DNA of 32,000 nucleotides. Source: Promethearchaeota archaeon. GTDB lineage: Archaea; Asgardarchaeota; Lokiarchaeia; Sigyniarchaeales; Promethearchaeaceae. Both the position numbers and the translations under genes were made by a program. This document shows, piece by piece, positions 21,090 through 27,795 of the stretch (position 1 is the first letter of the stretch; every line of letters begins with the position of its first letter). The notes below the pieces were generated by a model that searched no databases, was not told the origin of the DNA, and worked only from the letters and a program-made list of their open reading frames with translations. The DNA lies in NCBI GenBank assembly GCA_016933055.1, contig JAFGBS010000009.1:360001-392000 (forward strand), given 5' to 3'.

Positions 21090-21758
21090 ATTACCGATAA
21101 AAAAGCAAGAATATTGGTTATTGATGATGAAAAAGCCATCAGAGTAACATTGAAAAGAATTCTTGAACTGGCAGATTTTACGGTCGAAACTGCGAGGGAT
21201 TTCCAAAGTGTTAAATCCATATTAAACGCTGAGAATCCTAATTTTGACCTACTTTTGGTAGACTTAGTTCTACCTAAAACTAATGGAATCGATATTGTAA
21301 AACACTTTAGCGAAAAATATGATTTCGACATACCTGTTATATTTTTAACAGGTGAACCGAACTTAGATTCCGCAATTAATGCACTGCGTTTAGGAGCTTA
21401 TGATTATATTGAGAAACCAATTAAAAAAGCACAATTACTAGAAGTCATCGAATATGCGTTACAACGCAAAAAAAGTGAGGATAATATCCAAGATAAGCGT
21501 ATGGCACAAAAAATGGAACAGAAGCTAAAGGGATTAGAAAAAAATTTACAATCAAGTATCATAACCAACTTTACAATGAAAGTCGATGCGCTACGAGAAA
21601 AAATTGATTATTTGAGACAGGGCAAAGCGGGAAACCTCCCCGTTGAGATTTCTAATGAAATTGCGAATTTAGATAAATTAGTTAATGACCTAGAACTCGA
21701 GATTAAAAAAAGTAATCACCTTGGAAAATTTATGCGAGAACTAACAAAAAAAAAATAG
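21090..21758 (+). CDS. Response regulator (receiver domain plus coiled-coil C-terminus)
   Basis: RILVIDDE, LLLVDLVLPKTNG (phospho-Asp), FLTG and YIEKP. Start placed at ATT 21090 (MTDKKARILVIDDE); the track start TTG 21114 cuts into beta-1. Confidence 0.92.
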   Translation: MTDKKARILVIDDEKAIRVTLKRILELADFTVETARDFQSVKSILNAENPNFDLLLVDLVLPKTNGIDIVKHFSEKYDFDIPVIFLTGEPNLDSAINALRLGAYDYIEKPIKKAQLLEVIEYALQRKKSEDNIQDKRMAQKMEQKLKGLEKNLQSSIITNFTMKVDALREKIDYLRQGKAGNLPVEISNEIANLDKLVNDLELEIKKSNHLGKFMRELTKKK

Positions 21759-21943
21759 TCTAATCTACATTTGTTGAACCTAATCGCTTTTTTTTCATAC
21801 GACCGTTGTATAAAGGGGTAACTATACTGTACGCAGTGCGTTTGGTCAGCAATTTTGATGATAGCATGTAAAAATCGAAATTTGGATGGATTCTTGGGGA
21901 GAAGGGAGAAGACCGCACAGTACAAAGGAGAATAAAGGGGAAA

Positions 21944-21967
21944 TTTTACCGATTAGCTTCGGTAAAA
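21944..21967. other. Perfect 9-bp inverted repeat with 6-nt spacer
   Basis: TTTTACCGA-ttagct-TCGGTAAAA, about 90 nt upstream of the roadblock ATG. Function unknown. Confidence 0.5.
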
Positions 21968-22056
21968 AAAGATTACTATACAATTTTTTGACATAGAAGA
22001 AATATTCAAATAGTGAATCAACCGATATTTTATTAGATCAATCGAGTGGGCACATT

Positions 22057-22416
22057 ATGAGTGATGCAATAATAAATGAAATCGCGCAATCCTTAAAGAA
22101 AATCAAAGGTATTCATGGTTCAGCAATAATTGAAAAATATGGTGAAATCACTGGATTTGCATTACCGGGTTGGGTAGATCCGGAGGGTGTAAGTGCTATG
22201 GTTGCTTTGATATTGAAGGCTAGTGAACGTGCAACTAAGGAATTAGATCAAGGAGAACTTCTTACTGCAACCTTAGAAAATGAAAAAGGAAAACTTGTTT
22301 TTACTCCTATTGGAGATAAAGTAATCGTCATAATTACTACAAAAGAAGCCCAATTGGGATTGATTACTCTCAAACTTGAAGCAGCTCGGAAAAAGCTGAA
22401 AGAAGGGACTATTTAA
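22057..22416 (+). CDS. Roadblock/LC7 (MglB/LAMTOR-like) domain protein
   Basis: 119 aa; KGIHGSAII...G, VSAMVALILKASERATKEL..GEL....LE.EKGKL and AQLGLI.L.L. Confidence 0.9.
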   Translation: MSDAIINEIAQSLKKIKGIHGSAIIEKYGEITGFALPGWVDPEGVSAMVALILKASERATKELDQGELLTATLENEKGKLVFTPIGDKVIVIITTKEAQLGLITLKLEAARKKLKEGTI

Positions 22417-22555
22417 TTTCTCTTTTTACTTTTTTGCGCACCTTAAGCTGAAATCTATTCTTTTTCCCCTTGAGAGCGGATCTTAAAAAAAGAATAAGCT
22501 TTTGAGTTCTTTCTTTAATAAAGTGAGTATAAAAAAAGAGAGTTGAATCCAATAA
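22417..22555. terminator. Oligo-T tracts on both strands between convergent genes (probable archaeal terminators)
   Basis: Plus strand has TTTCTCTTTTTACTTTTTTG right after the roadblock stop. The plus-strand AAAAAAAG runs form T-tracts on the minus strand downstream of the mre11-rad50 stop. Confidence 0.45.
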
Positions 22556-25500
22556 TTAATGAAGAATAATAGAATTTCCCGTATCATCACGACCAATCTT
22601 AATCCGATTTGAAAATTGCTCAGCCACATCCTCCAAATGCGTAATTAAGATGATATTCTTAAAGCGAGATTTCATAGAGAGGATCTTGTCTACGAATCGT
22701 TGTCGGGACATTTCATCATCCAAGGTTCCCAAATCCCCCTCATCAATAAATAAGGTATCTGATTTTCGAAATATTGCTCCAGCGGTATCGGGAATTTCCG
22801 ATATCCGTTCCATGATTGCAAATCGAATCGCTGCATTGATTTGAGTCTTTTCACCACCTGAATAGGTTCCAGCTTCCCGACTCAATTCTCCATCAAAAAC
22901 ATGGATATTGAATCCTACGCGATGATTCTCTTCAATGGGGACAAATTCAATTTGATTCAATCGGCCTCTTGTCAAATCACTGAGGATTTCTGATGCACGA
23001 ATAGAGATTGCAGGCAGTATTTTCTCCAGAGCGAATTTTGGAATTCCATCCAAATGGAAGATTTCCTTATGTAAAATGGTATAGACTTCAATTTCTCTTT
23101 TAAATTTGTTCAGTTCTTTGATCATGTTCCGAATATCGCTTTTTTTCTCTTCTTTTTCCATGATATCTTGTTCTAAATGTTGAATATCCGACTTGATGCG
23201 TTCAATGGCGATATCCATTTCCTTTAGCTCTTCTTTTGATAATTCGTAATAGGAACACAGCTCTTGGTACGATTTATATTTAGGTTCAAGTTCGTGAAAC
23301 TTGTTTTCTGTCTTTTTTTTCTCTTCTTCAATATTCTTGATGTTATGCACGGTTTCATTTATTAGCAGAGAATAATCTTTTAACTGAGATAATCGACTAA
23401 GCAATTTTTCTTCTTCTTGTTGTTGCTTTTCGATGGATTTTAGAGTACGTGTGACTTCTGCTAAATGCGATTGGAAGTCCTCTTCCAACTTCTGCTTACG
23501 CATGGAATCTTGTATCGTAGCAAGATCTGTTTGCAGTGGTTTAAGTATTCCATCAAGTTTGTCCTCTAAGACTTGTATTTCGACTTCCATGGTGGCGACC
23601 TGTTCGATAAGCTCATTGGCAATAAATATATCTTTGGTGATTAGTTTTTGCTTCGGTTTCACATTATTCAGCTCGTTAACTGTAGACGATTTGGTATTTT
23701 CAAATTGTACTAAACGAGGTTGATCTGAATATTCCTTTGCCATGGGGATTTCGATGTTTTGGAGGCGTGATAGGCGTTCTGTTAAAGCTCCAATTGTCTG
23801 TAATACATCAAATGCTTGTTCTTTACTCATATCCACTGCAAGCTTTTCAATCCTGGCTTTGAAGTTCTTAATTTTGGCTGCAATTTCTTTTATTTGCTCT
23901 TGATTCTGGTGCTTTACCATTGAAATTTTATCAACAATCGCTCTTTTCTCCGTTTCACAAAGTTGTTTTTGAGACAATTTCTCCTGTAATTCGTTTCGAA
24001 CTTTCTGATGCATGTCTTTCTCTTTGGATAAATCTTTGAACTTCTCCAACTGGTTTTGAATAACTTCATAATTTTTCTGGTTTTTCTGGTAATCAGTTAG
24101 ATTTTGCTTGGTTTTCATTAATTGCGACGCAAATTCTTGTACTTTGTTTTTAGTGATTTCATACTGAGTCAGTATGGAAGAATCCTTTTCGATTTCTTTT
24201 TCTAATTCGGTCATCTTCTGTTGGTGCTTATTGCGTTCTTTTTTAGATTCCTGCAGTACTGCTTTTTTTGTTTTAAGCTTGGTTACCAGTTCGGGGATTT
24301 TCTCGATATCTTCTTGTTGTGCCCCGATTTTCCCCTCAAGATTATCATGGACTGAATTCAGATCTTTTATGATCTTTCTCATATCCATGGTCGTGAATAT
24401 CTTGAGTTTGAATAATTTGGCCAGTCGTTCTTGTCTTTCAGCGGAAGAGAGCGATGAGAATATTTGCAGCTCTTGCTGGCGAATAAAAAATGAGGAGATA
24501 AAACTCTCATAATCATACCCGATAATCTCTTCCAGTCTTTTCTCTTGCTCGGGGATTTTTAACCCTTGATAAGGTTCCTGTCCATTGATAAAAATCCGTA
24601 ATTTTGGAGAATTTTGACTTCTTCGTATCCTCAAGAGGTTCTTCCCAATCTGAAACTCTACATCCACATATCCATTTTCATATAAGATCTCATCATTCGT
24701 CAATCCAGCTTCCTTTCTCATACTTCTTTTAAAAAGAGCAAATGTAATAGCATCTAATAAGGAAGATTTTCCCGTACCCGTTGGACCCGTTATAACGTAC
24801 AAATCCTCCTCAAATTCGATTCTGTTTGGGCCTTTCCTATATTTGTTGAAATTTTGGAGGGAAATGGATTTTATGGAGAGAGTTCCTTTTTCAGTAATAT
24901 CACTGGTTTTTAATTGAGATTCTATCAATTCAGTGCCTTTTTTGAACACATCATCGTAATATTCATTTTGTCTGTATTTCTGTTTCATAAAATCCTCAAA
25001 TAAACTCAAGGGGGAGAGATTAATACTCCTTAGATGCTGAAGTTCTTCTTCAGCTTTTACTACATAAATAATATCCGTATAGAACGAGCCGGTAAAATGC
25101 TGTTCGATTGCCCGTTTATCCAAATGAATTTGTTTTCCTTTAATGCAAGTTATGGTGACATGACAGAGTGCATGTTTTATCGTTTCTTTTTTGGGTAATC
25201 TCTCAAAAATATATTGAGTTAAATTTAGTGTATTAGGAGGGACTTCAATCTCAGTTTTAAGGATTGGGCGGCATTTCAACTCGTGGTATTTCAATGTATC
25301 CGTTTCAGGTTCATAGACACAATAATATTTTTTTGAATCCTTTTCTCCCATATCGATTCGCTCGGTAGAACCTAATACGACAATACGGTCATCGTTCCAC
25401 ATGGTTTGTTTAAGATGCACATGTCCGAATATAACTAAATCAAAAAAGTGTTTTTGAACCATCTGCTGATTAAACTCAAATTCTCCATAGATATGTGCAG

Positions 25501-26119
25501 GATTCATCGTTTCCCGGATTTTGCTTCCTTTCAGGTAATAGTGCCCGATTAGAATCCGTTTATCACACTCTTTAAGATCCTCTTCACATATTTGTGTAAT
25601 ATACCTTTGAACAATTGTTTGTGCGATGGATTGGGTATCCATACCTTCAGGAATGTCAAACCCGACCTTTTTCGCTAACGAAACTAATACATCATAATGC
25701 ATAAACGGTAAAAGTGCCAATCCTATGGAACAATTGTTAGATTGAATGATTTTAGAAGCAAATTGCATGTGTACCTCGACATTAGAATAGCTGGAAAGCT
25801 CCTCTAAATCTACTCCACGTTGCGGATGACGGGCAGCATCATGATTTCCTCCGATAATAATCACAGGGATCTTCGCTTTATATAAAGGGTCAAAAATACG
25901 ATTTCTCACAATTTTGCGAATTGTGGGGGAGATTATCTTTCGATCGTATACATCTCCTAGAAAAATGACATAATCTGCGTTATTTTGTATCGCATCCTTG
26001 ACAATTATCTCACAATTATCAATTACATCCAGATTTCGTTCCGAGATATTCAATTCGTAATTTGATAAATAGGAATATTTCTTCCCGAAATGGGTATCTC
26101 CTATAAAATATAATTTCAT
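22556..26119 (-). CDS. Mre11(SbcD)-Rad50(SbcC) fusion protein
   Basis: N-terminal phosphoesterase motifs GDTHFG, LGDVYD, GGNHD, IGH and FGHVH. From about residue 418: SISLQNF, Walker A GPTGTGKSS, Q-loop IRQQE, long coiled coil, signature YSGGE, Walker B/D-loop FIDEGDLGTLD and H-loop ITH. One uninterrupted frame; ATG 26119 (track TTG 26131). Confidence 0.93.
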   Translation of the reverse strand: MKLYFIGDTHFGKKYSYLSNYELNISERNLDVIDNCEIIVKDAIQNNADYVIFLGDVYDRKIISPTIRKIVRNRIFDPLYKAKIPVIIIGGNHDAARHPQRGVDLEELSSYSNVEVHMQFASKIIQSNNCSIGLALLPFMHYDVLVSLAKKVGFDIPEGMDTQSIAQTIVQRYITQICEEDLKECDKRILIGHYYLKGSKIRETMNPAHIYGEFEFNQQMVQKHFFDLVIFGHVHLKQTMWNDDRIVVLGSTERIDMGEKDSKKYYCVYEPETDTLKYHELKCRPILKTEIEVPPNTLNLTQYIFERLPKKETIKHALCHVTITCIKGKQIHLDKRAIEQHFTGSFYTDIIYVVKAEEELQHLRSINLSPLSLFEDFMKQKYRQNEYYDDVFKKGTELIESQLKTSDITEKGTLSIKSISLQNFNKYRKGPNRIEFEEDLYVITGPTGTGKSSLLDAITFALFKRSMRKEAGLTNDEILYENGYVDVEFQIGKNLLRIRRSQNSPKLRIFINGQEPYQGLKIPEQEKRLEEIIGYDYESFISSFFIRQQELQIFSSLSSAERQERLAKLFKLKIFTTMDMRKIIKDLNSVHDNLEGKIGAQQEDIEKIPELVTKLKTKKAVLQESKKERNKHQQKMTELEKEIEKDSSILTQYEITKNKVQEFASQLMKTKQNLTDYQKNQKNYEVIQNQLEKFKDLSKEKDMHQKVRNELQEKLSQKQLCETEKRAIVDKISMVKHQNQEQIKEIAAKIKNFKARIEKLAVDMSKEQAFDVLQTIGALTERLSRLQNIEIPMAKEYSDQPRLVQFENTKSSTVNELNNVKPKQKLITKDIFIANELIEQVATMEVEIQVLEDKLDGILKPLQTDLATIQDSMRKQKLEEDFQSHLAEVTRTLKSIEKQQQEEEKLLSRLSQLKDYSLLINETVHNIKNIEEEKKKTENKFHELEPKYKSYQELCSYYELSKEELKEMDIAIERIKSDIQHLEQDIMEKEEKKSDIRNMIKELNKFKREIEVYTILHKEIFHLDGIPKFALEKILPAISIRASEILSDLTRGRLNQIEFVPIEENHRVGFNIHVFDGELSREAGTYSGGEKTQINAAIRFAIMERISEIPDTAGAIFRKSDTLFIDEGDLGTLDDEMSRQRFVDKILSMKSRFKNIILITHLEDVAEQFSNRIKIGRDDTGNSIILH

Positions 26120-26134
26120 TTTACCTTTCAATCC

Positions 26135-27769
26135 TTATTTGAATAACGCTTTCGCATCTCCTTTCATAATATCATTTTTTACTTCCGCTTGGGTCTTAAT
26201 CATCTTAAGTGCTTTCTTAAGATCATCTTCTTTATGATAATCCATTATCCGAATGATAGTAGGAACCGTAATTGCATCTCCATAGATCAAGCATTCTCGT
26301 TTCAACAAACCCGAAATGATTTTACGATATTCGGTCGGATTCCGAAGTGTTCCTACGGTTTTATCGATATCTCTACTGTCAATCAAATGCATAATAAATC
26401 TCGTGGCAACTTGGGACATTACTTCTTCATCAATTTGAGAAGGACGTTGGTCCACAAAAGCAAGCGTTAATTGGAATTTTCGCATTTCTCTAGCGATTCG
26501 GTCAAATATGGTGTATCGGATAACACCGGGATGTAGAAATTTGTGAGCTTCTTCCAATACGACTACTAAAGGAGGAAGATCTTCATTTTCCTCTCGTAGC
26601 GAATACATCTGATATAATCGGCGAGTAATAGCGTTTGCTATGAAATAATAGAGAAATTTATCTACACCGTAAGTACCGAAATCAATGACAACGGATTTTC
26701 CCTTCTGGATTTGTTCAAACATATTCTGAATGCTATCAGGCGTATTGGGAATTTTTGGAACTAGAAAAGAATATTTATGGAAGCGGCTAATGCGATTCCG
26801 TAATGCGATTAAAGATGATCGAAATATATTTGGTTCTTCTTCTCCATTGTTGTTGATATAATTCAATAAATCTTGACTTTGTTTTGGATCACTTCGCATT
26901 TTTGTTTCAAGAATATGAAGTGCGTTGATAGATGGTTCTCCCAAAGTCTGGCTGCTTGCGATAATATCGCCGCTGGTAATATTTTCCCGATAAAATTTAA
27001 ACGGCTCGGCATCATCTATGACTTTTTCTTTCTGATTTACATCACCGAGTCGATATATTTGAATCTCATCGTGGAAGTAATGTTTAAGCCCTTTAGAACG
27101 ATCTTCTCCGCGGGATACTAACCCATACTCTCCTTGCATATCAAAAATTAGTAATCTCGATACTTTTTGCTTTAAAATGAACAAACAGAGCAATTTATTC
27201 AGTATTGATTTTCCTATCCCCGTTCTACCGAACACTCCAAATGGTTTTTTCACTAAAGTTCCAAAATCAATCGGAATTTTGTAATTAAAACCACGAAGCG
27301 TGCCAATAGAATCCGAAGTGGGGGTTTCTCCGAAAATAATTTTAATTTCCTCTTCGGTTATTGATCGACATTTCGCAAATACAGGAGGAATAGTATCAAA
27401 TTCTCGCAATTCTTCATTAGTGGTATCGATGGGAATAATTTTCAAACAGTCTAAGTTGGCAAGACCATAAAATTCTTTCCCACGCACACCCTCTACTTGA
27501 CTCGCTGGAATCAAGTTAGTTAAGGAAGTGTTAGCAAATTTCATAACAACATCATTAGGTGGATAAAATAAACGATTGACCATGCTATAATACAAAAACT
27601 TGTCTGTATCTACAATTATTGGTTGCCCGAGTTTTAATTCATCTGGTCTTTTTTGGATCTTTAATATTATTCCAGTTTCGGTATCTGCAAGACAGACTTC
27701 TCCTATTTTCTCCTTTTCAATTGGAGTGGGTATTTCTTCAAATTTCATATCTTCTTCCTTTTTTTTCAC
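26135..27769 (-). CDS. herA: HerA-family helicase/translocase ATPase
   Basis: N-terminal HAS-barrel-like region, Walker A FGRTGIGKS, FDMQGEY, Walker B VLEEAHKF and IAREMRKF...DQRPSQID. The start may be ATG 27748. Confidence 0.92.
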   Translation of the reverse strand: MKKKEEDMKFEEIPTPIEKEKIGEVCLADTETGIILKIQKRPDELKLGQPIIVDTDKFLYYSMVNRLFYPPNDVVMKFANTSLTNLIPASQVEGVRGKEFYGLANLDCLKIIPIDTTNEELREFDTIPPVFAKCRSITEEEIKIIFGETPTSDSIGTLRGFNYKIPIDFGTLVKKPFGVFGRTGIGKSILNKLLCLFILKQKVSRLLIFDMQGEYGLVSRGEDRSKGLKHYFHDEIQIYRLGDVNQKEKVIDDAEPFKFYRENITSGDIIASSQTLGEPSINALHILETKMRSDPKQSQDLLNYINNNGEEEPNIFRSSLIALRNRISRFHKYSFLVPKIPNTPDSIQNMFEQIQKGKSVVIDFGTYGVDKFLYYFIANAITRRLYQMYSLREENEDLPPLVVVLEEAHKFLHPGVIRYTIFDRIAREMRKFQLTLAFVDQRPSQIDEEVMSQVATRFIMHLIDSRDIDKTVGTLRNPTEYRKIISGLLKRECLIYGDAITVPTIIRIMDYHKEDDLKKALKMIKTQAEVKNDIMKGDAKALFK

Positions 27770-27795
27770 TATTTTTCCCTCATTTTCATATTATC

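Follow-up and report, generated by a model that had tools for sequence, protein, structure and literature searches.

A predicted single-chain Mre11-Rad50 protein encoded beside nurA and herA in a Lokiarchaeia genome

Introduction

Natural fusions of Mre11 and Rad50 were first described in 2011 by Yoshida, Claverie, and Ogata (Virol J 8:427, PMC3175470), with the same structural rationale that applies below. These fusions were found in Mimivirus (R555), Bacillus phage 0305phi8-36, plasmids of C. kluyveri and Deferribacter, and several eukaryotes. Here, we examine a similar gene in a 32,000-nucleotide (nt) stretch of DNA from a Promethearchaeota archaeon of the class Lokiarchaeia (GenBank assembly GCA_016933055.1, contig JAFGBS010000009.1, positions 360,001 to 392,000), referred to from here on as the window, in which mre11-like and rad50-like sequences share one reading frame next to nurA and herA. 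An initial annotation made from the sequence had described such fusions as sporadic, naming Mimivirus, and knew of none embedded in a nurA-herA operon. The first statement agrees with the 2011 study, in which no archaeal case appears. In line with the second, our full-text literature searches returned no report of an Asgard or nurA-herA-linked Mre11-Rad50 fusion, and on natural fusions they yielded the 2011 study alone; a 2026 review of NurA that covers Asgard genomes does not mention it, and PMC5654768, which concerns ubiquitylation of Sulfolobus Rad50, is irrelevant to the fusion. This type of fusion has been known since 2011, and the Asgard case linked to nurA-herA is a rare, lineage-specific addition to it.

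How does the Lokiarchaeia gene compare with the systems already described? Like the 2011 fusions, its product has an N-terminal Mre11 part, a C-terminal Rad50 part, a linker of about ten residues, and a sporadic spread. Unlike them, it is archaeal and lies in a nurA-herA context that PMC3175470 does not mention, and its closest relatives are unfused Asgard/Thermoplasmatota pairs rather than viral or plasmid proteins. Because its nearest relatives are these unfused pairs, the Lokiarchaeia fusion looks like one that arose independently of the viral and plasmid fusions. A further difference concerns the cellular cases of 2011, all of which except Deferribacter have a second, unfused Mre11-Rad50 set that the genome of the window lacks.

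The canonical archaeal Mre11-Rad50 of P. furiosus, M. jannaschii, and Sulfolobus shares with the fused protein the nuclease, capping, and helix-loop-helix elements, the ABC head with its coiled coil, and the HerA/NurA partners. However, the canonical operon reads herA-mre11-rad50-nurA and yields two polypeptides, whereas that of the window reads nurA-herA-mre11::rad50 and yields one; compared with canonical archaeal Rad50, the Rad50 part is also shorter (∼775 amino acids [aa]), has no CxxC zinc hook, and scores far under the NCBIfam equivalog cutoffs. The split modules of Hodarchaeales/Heimdall-type Asgard archaea and some Thermoplasmatota are closest, with the same protein family, gene order, and helix-loop-helix end and the same lack of a zinc hook, but they consist of two genes and are nearly universal in their own family, while the fused form is rare in Lokiarchaeia. 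E. coli SbcCD is the same two-domain machine and differs in being made of two proteins, with a zinc hook and without NurA/HerA partners.

Asgard archaea are the archaeal group closest to eukaryotes. In this group the fusion seems to have arisen again, apart from the viral and plasmid cases, inside a classical nurA-herA operon. A compact, hook-free single chain with a fixed 1:1 ratio would be convenient for structural and single-molecule work, and the absent hook, together with a predicted protein-only apex, bears on how far Rad50 requires a zinc hook. We regard two aspects as the more interesting: the apex, which has no hook and probably pairs with itself, and a distribution like that of a cassette. 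In public records the fused proteins are called "AAA family ATPase," "exonuclease SbcC," or "hypothetical protein," so that their architecture is currently invisible in annotation.

Results and discussion

One reading frame encodes the Mre11 and Rad50 parts

Judging from sequence comparisons and structure prediction, the reverse strand of the window probably encodes a functional single-chain Mre11-Rad50 as the last gene of a DNA-end-processing operon, nurA-herA-mre11::rad50 (Table 1). A single open frame covers positions 22556-26131 and holds 1191 codons if a TTG at 26131 is taken as the first. Past the stop codon of herA (TAA, 26135-26137) come GGATTGAAAGGTAAA and an ATG at 26119, which lies 15 nt from that stop behind AAAGGT and is the likely translation start. 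The 1187-aa product from this ATG is identical to a database protein (P0004), whose residue numbers we use throughout; P0001 numbering, given where indicated, runs four higher.

Both halves are matched by curated models. Pfam places Metallophos at residues 5-239 (55.3 bits; cutoff, 21.5) and AAA_23 at 422-648 (66.9 bits; cutoff, 27), with AAA_23, SMC_N, and AAA_29 all matching from residue 420 onward (P0001 numbering); in the same numbering, NCBIfam places sbcd at 5-269 and its Rad50/SbcC models from 419 onward. The AlphaFold2 (AF2) model of the fused protein has a mean predicted local distance difference test (pLDDT) value of 78.3 and a predicted template modeling (pTM) score of 0.46. Its elements succeed one another in the order nuclease, capping strands (264-355), tether (356-369), helix-loop-helix, coil (406-413), first Rad50 strand (414-424), coiled coil (581-1020), and C-terminal ATPase lobe, so that a capping domain and a C-terminal helix-loop-helix are both predicted to be present. 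Foldseek matched the model to the Mre11/SbcD structures 4tug, 7dog, and 3thn, with template modeling (TM) scores of 0.75-0.77 normalized to target length, to full-length MjMre11 (3av0_A; target TM-score, 0.66), and to the Rad50 structures 7zr1 and 3av0_B, with Rad50 structures heading the fold matches. In phmmer searches against the PDB, the Rad50 proteins of M. jannaschii and T. maritima ranked first (M. jannaschii 3aux, E 9.8e-20), and bacterial SbcD and SbcC were among the matches of both programs. A long antiparallel coiled coil divides the ABC motif set of the Rad50 part, which is complete (Walker A, Q-loop, signature, Walker B, D-loop, and H-loop) and invariant in the alignment of homologues described below.

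TABLE 1 Features of the fused gene and its operon in the window
Feature	Position	Strand	Residues	Basis
Fused mre11::rad50 gene	22556..26119	-	1187 aa	Stop codon at 22556-22558; mechanical open reading frame (ORF) reaches TTG 26131
Mre11/SbcD phosphoesterase domain, motifs I-V	25370..26119	-	1-250	Pfam, TIGR00619, alignment, Foldseek
Mre11 capping domain	25055..25369	-	251-355	AF2 beta strands 264-355; Foldseek alignments to 7dog_B and 4tug
Flexible tether between capping domain and helix-loop-helix	25013..25054	-	356-369	AF2, mostly coil; block pLDDT 68-74
Mre11 C-terminal helix-loop-helix, putative Rad50-binding domain	24905..25012	-	370-405	AF2 helices 370-381 and 388-405
Fusion linker SDITEKGT	24881..24904	-	406-413	AF2 coil; ungapped alignment; ends of split genes map here
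Rad50 N-terminal ATPase lobe	24380..24880	-	414-580	Strand 1, Walker A 445-453, Q-loop Q548; AAA_23, SMC_N, AAA_29
Antiparallel coiled coil	23060..24379	-	581-1020	AF2 long helices with short breaks
Conserved Cys-free apex at zinc-hook position	23624..23824	-	766-832	Alignment; homodimer prediction
Rad50 C-terminal ATPase lobe	22559..23059	-	1021-1187	SGGEK 1087-1091, Walker B D1126/E1127, D-loop, H1161
herA helicase gene	26135..27769	-		PF01935, 69.7 bits (cutoff, 23.2); HerA NCBIfam models match
nurA nuclease gene (divergent), P0003	27796..28872	-	358 aa	Orthologue and profile matches

The junction is conserved in independent assemblies

Could the single frame be an artefact of assembly or sequencing that merged two genes? 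The window comes from a metagenome-type assembly of 36 contigs, which would allow for such an error. However, the database search for full-length fused homologues that the initial annotation had proposed yielded some 35 proteins, 1186-1200 aa long, with matching two-domain Pfam content and 44-58% identity to the query. They stem from many independent metagenome assemblies and belong to Promethearchaeota wherever a name is given. An alignment of 27 full-length fused homologues from independent assemblies (A1; 44-56% identity) has no gap in any sequence across residues 340-440, which span the junction. Because the frame is conserved across independent assemblies, a local error at the junction is very unlikely; the uninterrupted frame occurs in more than 27 of them and again in a second fused clade at 25-31% identity, and we consider the artefact explanation effectively refuted.

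The motifs of both enzymes are conserved in the same 27 proteins. The nuclease has the five phosphoesterase motifs (DxH, GDxxD, GNHD/E, H, and GHxH), in which D8 and H10 are kept in at least 90% of the proteins, and D56, N92/H93, H193, and H233/H235 are invariant. The Rad50 invariants comprise Walker A (G445-S452), Q548, the signature (S1087-E1090), Walker B (D1126/E1127), and H1161, and those of the helix-loop-helix are L373, Y382, and G395. On the evidence of these alignments and of the Pfam and NCBIfam matches, the claim that Mre11 and Rad50 form a genuine single chain, every motif lying in the same frame, is confirmed at the sequence level.

A second possibility is that the fusion exists at the gene level only, with two separate subunits produced either because translation also starts near the junction or because proteases cut the chain. 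Nothing supports this directly, although the linker is an exposed coil of lower model confidence. The junction DNA (24820-25020) contains neither a stop codon nor an ATG, as the initial annotation had it when it saw no stop, frameshift, or internal Met there, and across the 27 homologues neither a Met nor a start context is conserved at the junction while the length of the linker is fixed. The fixed length and the missing start argue for selection on the covalent link, and we regard production as two subunits as highly improbable.

The fusion is predicted to preserve the hinge of the complex

In solved Mre11-Rad50 complexes, whatever their state, the helix-loop-helix remains attached to the coiled-coil base of Rad50; the complex opens on a hinge formed by the tether that links the capping domain to the helix-loop-helix. 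On this basis, two chains of the fused protein would pair via their Mre11 nuclease domains, and each C-terminal helix-loop-helix would dock in cis, at the coiled-coil base of the Rad50 part in the same chain. ATP would then bring the two Rad50 heads together over DNA, the Cys-free apex would self-associate without zinc, and DNA ends would be passed to HerA and NurA for long-range resection. Cis docking, Mre11 dimerization, apex pairing, and activity are predictions.

The linker had been put at about ten residues, close to the eight (406-413) in the AF2 model. In the T. maritima complex, the Mre11 C terminus and the Rad50 N terminus are ∼28 Å apart, a distance that calls for a linker of 9-12 residues (PMC3175470). 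An 8-residue coil with fraying ends of the adjoining helix and strand fits this gap. The initial annotation further proposed that the fusion fixes stoichiometry and constrains head opening. The first part is reasonable, in that a fusion would guarantee 1:1 stoichiometry and co-inheritance. The second finds no support: the tether (356-369) is retained, and from this we infer that the fusion should fix the 1:1 ratio without restricting the heads. The open/closed cycle is probably not altered.

The apex is conserved but has no zinc hook

A zinc hook is normally needed for Rad50 function. The CxxC motif is absent from all 27 fused homologues, whose Rad50 parts have 0-2 Cys, and from the split relatives described below; the zinc-hook model PF04423 had no match in the genome of the window, although this model is insensitive and was positive in just 3 of 14 control genomes. 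In place of the hook, the 27 proteins have a set of apex positions (∼769-832) that do not vary (A769, F770, G777, E781, R782, R785, E790, Y797, D799, and D830/F832), with P792 in at least 90%.

The homodimer prediction for residues 740-880 gave a score of 0.55, compared with 0.00 for the best control; 20 of 30 solved homodimers attained the mark used, as did 1 of 23 solved monomers. Contact agreement between runs was 64% or higher, and pLDDT was at least 69. The predicted interface (residues 770-802 and 824) coincides with the invariant positions 770-797. The Cys-free apex is thus predicted, on this modeling, to pair with itself. A broader proposal is that Lokiarchaeia carry a self-sufficient, zinc-independent single-chain Mre11-Rad50, in which the Cys-free apex replaces the zinc hook as the element that pairs the coiled coils, and that this is one of several interchangeable NurA/HerA/Mre11-type cassettes that share a chromosomal site in close relatives; taken as a whole, we hold this to be doubtful.

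The fused gene follows nurA and herA

The nurA-herA context named in the initial annotation is borne out, for herA by its match to PF01935 and for nurA through its orthologues. By itself, the NurA-like protein (P0003) reaches 15.4 bits with PF09376, under the cutoff of 21, but all 8 of its orthologues match this family (best E 4.3e-13), and a profile built from them matches S. solfataricus NurA (2ygk) with an E value of 0.023. The genes are tightly spaced, with 26 nt between nurA and herA and the 15 nt already mentioned between herA and the fused gene. Directly upstream of the fused gene, herA is found in every fused locus examined, and the full order of nurA, herA, and fused gene recurs in 5 further loci from the fused clade of the window and in 1 locus of the second fused clade.

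One flank of the module holds genes for endonuclease III, a sensor kinase with its response regulator, and a Roadblock/LC7 protein; the other holds genes for an F420 ligase, a NosD-like protein, and a pterin-binding enzyme. Neither flank has integrase, transposase, or defence genes, and the GC content of the module is similar to that of its surroundings.

Split relatives point to an end-to-end join

In a survey of 400 genomes of the phylum, an mre11-like gene (∼410-450 aa) directly followed by a rad50-like gene (∼790-820 aa) was found in 19 of 22 genomes of one Heimdall-type family and in one further genome. The two products match query residues 5-408 and 416-1188, respectively, with 28-34% identity (27-34% across the unfused modules as a whole), and the intergenic gap is ∼30-60 nt (examples are G067:C1:923905-927467, P0043, P0047, and P0063). 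These pairs are adjoined by NurA and HerA in the order nurA-herA-mre11-rad50, and by database names they belong to Hodarchaeales/Heimdallarchaeota and some Thermoplasmatota. When aligned, the C-terminal ends of the split Mre11 proteins and the starts of the split Rad50 proteins both fall within the fused linker, which makes the fusion a simple end-to-end join. On these alignments, the fused gene is an adjacent mre11-rad50 pair, from a zinc-hook-less, Asgard/Thermoplasmatota-type family, joined end to end.

The second fused clade, with proteins of 1204-1217 aa from Lokiarchaeia/Promethearchaeota, was recovered when the Mre11 part was compared with 1.8 billion representative proteins. In trees of the Rad50 part, the fused clade of the window and the second fused clade are each supported at 100/100, and the split clade at 98/95. 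The free tree groups the second fused clade weakly with the split clade (80/74), and a tree that unites all fused proteins in one clade is not rejected (p-AU 0.207). These results are compatible with a single fusion, with two, or with an ancestral fusion and a later fission; the fused state could be ancestral for the family, with fission in the Heimdall/Thermoplasmatota branch.

Distribution of the fused gene

Within the class, only 8 of 161 species-level genomes have the fused gene, one of these copies being a fragment and one genome having two copies. The 13 further genomes in the family to which the window belongs, three closed ones included, all lack it, and it is present in 1 of 40 high-quality genomes. 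The initial annotation would have been refuted had such fusions been the documented norm of the lineage; the fusion is not the norm, and it marks two Lokiarchaeia clades and is not unique to the genome of the window. Relatives in the same family carry other pairs of HerA-like and Mre11-like genes without an adjacent Rad50 gene. In two closed genomes, G142 (L046, G142:C1 9043-12086) and G137 (L047, G137:C1 8790-12608), the HerA-like proteins have 582-595 aa and the Mre11-like proteins 393-404 aa, with an FHA-domain protein nearby in G142; a search with the query used here found no Rad50 relative in either genome. The genome with two copies, G181, has two complete nurA-herA-fused-gene modules (G181:C64:18085-21657 and G181:C8:32347-35901), and each of their fused proteins is 49-50% identical to that of the window.

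The chromosomal site itself varies between genomes. In GCA_016839385.1 (L064, JAEOUK010000564.1 3229-11380, compared with window 22057-29838), the Roadblock and F420 ligase flanks are identical to those of the window, and nurA-herA-mre11::rad50 is inverted between them. Inverted repeats had been considered as a cause of this inversion; around the module in the window none longer than 20 nt was found, and none at its borders. In G131, a genome of the same genus (L058, G131:C49 5740-10051, compared with window 22057-28872), the Roadblock orthologue has 96% aa identity and is followed by a different set of NurA-like (373 aa), HerA-like (523 aa), and Mre11-like (running off the contig) proteins, which share just 25-33% identity with any of the sets in this analysis. 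G131 thus holds another set at this site, which suggests that alternative end-processing cassettes occupy one conserved location.

A repair gene or an accessory cassette?

An accessory role was proposed for other Mre11/Rad50 fusions by Yoshida et al. (PMC3175470). Is the module of the window likewise an accessory, laterally moving cassette, directed, for example, at foreign DNA or carried for the benefit of a mobile element, rather than a part of housekeeping break repair? The patchiness of its spread, just described, is the main argument for this explanation. The two copies in G181, flanking genes that are not conserved across most loci, the different set behind Roadblock in G131, the inversion between identical flanks, and the link of other fusions to viruses and plasmids (PMC3175470) point the same way. 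On the other side, the flanks of the module are housekeeping genes free of mobility or defence functions, its GC content does not stand out, and the split form is nearly universal in the Heimdall-type family. Moreover, tblastn searches of 50,697 phage and 72,556 plasmid records gave nothing above 26% identity, and IMG/VR gave one weak match (28%) that consists of two separate ORFs, an unfused pair; an origin from a mobile element was rejected on these results. The fused gene is also the only Rad50-type gene that we found in the genome of the window, which is 91% complete. We consider an accessory cassette unlikely, with some room left for it.

Two of the tblastn matches touch the fused architecture itself. 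In Listeria phage LM 4-11-1 (H1, OR846945.1 5537-7939), a single segment covers query residues 1-787, and on a Nicoliella plasmid (H13, NZ_CP093360.1 30599-32275), a single segment covers residues 1-571. Both segments cross the Mre11/Rad50 boundary, which suggests that further fused, or in-frame abutting, sbcD-sbcC genes exist in phages and bacteria.

Returning to the reading as a functional single-chain enzyme of DNA-end processing, several findings weigh against it. The presence of the gene in so few genomes of the class and in no relative from the family, together with a genome holding two copies, is not what one would usually expect of a core repair system. The fused protein lacks the zinc hook on which Rad50 function normally depends, and the pTM score of the AF2 model leaves the relative placement of the domains uncertain. 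Finally, the curated NCBIfam models for Rad50, Mre11, and sbcd score far under their cutoffs: TIGR00619 (sbcd) reaches 61.7 bits against 77.65, Mre11_Halo 48.6 against 550, Rad50_Sulf 105.7 against 1000, and sbcc 101.1 against 478.5. Because of these low scores, we place the fused protein in a divergent subfamily, an assignment made by sequence comparison.

Other Mre11-like and SMC-like genes and a dispersed repeat

The genome of the window has a stand-alone gene for an Mre11-like phosphoesterase of 369 aa (L003 694-1803; G000 contig C17, ∼803.4-804.5 kb), located between a radical SAM gene and a gene for an ArsR-type regulator. This protein fits archaeal Mre11 models better than the fused protein does (Mre11_Pyroc, E 3.7e-20). 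Two other SMC-like proteins are encoded, neither with a CxxC motif and one with a globular, hinge-like middle. A second Mre11-Rad50 set in this genome was considered and rejected, as the stand-alone Mre11-like gene has no Rad50 neighbor and the SMC-like proteins have no CxxC.

A dispersed repeat of ∼240 bp lies at 21746-21989 of the window, between the response-regulator and Roadblock genes. At least 18 copies with 74-94% identity occur in the genome, several of them where contigs end, and G131 has at least 5. The repeat looks like a miniature inverted-repeat transposable element (MITE) or a small noncoding element.

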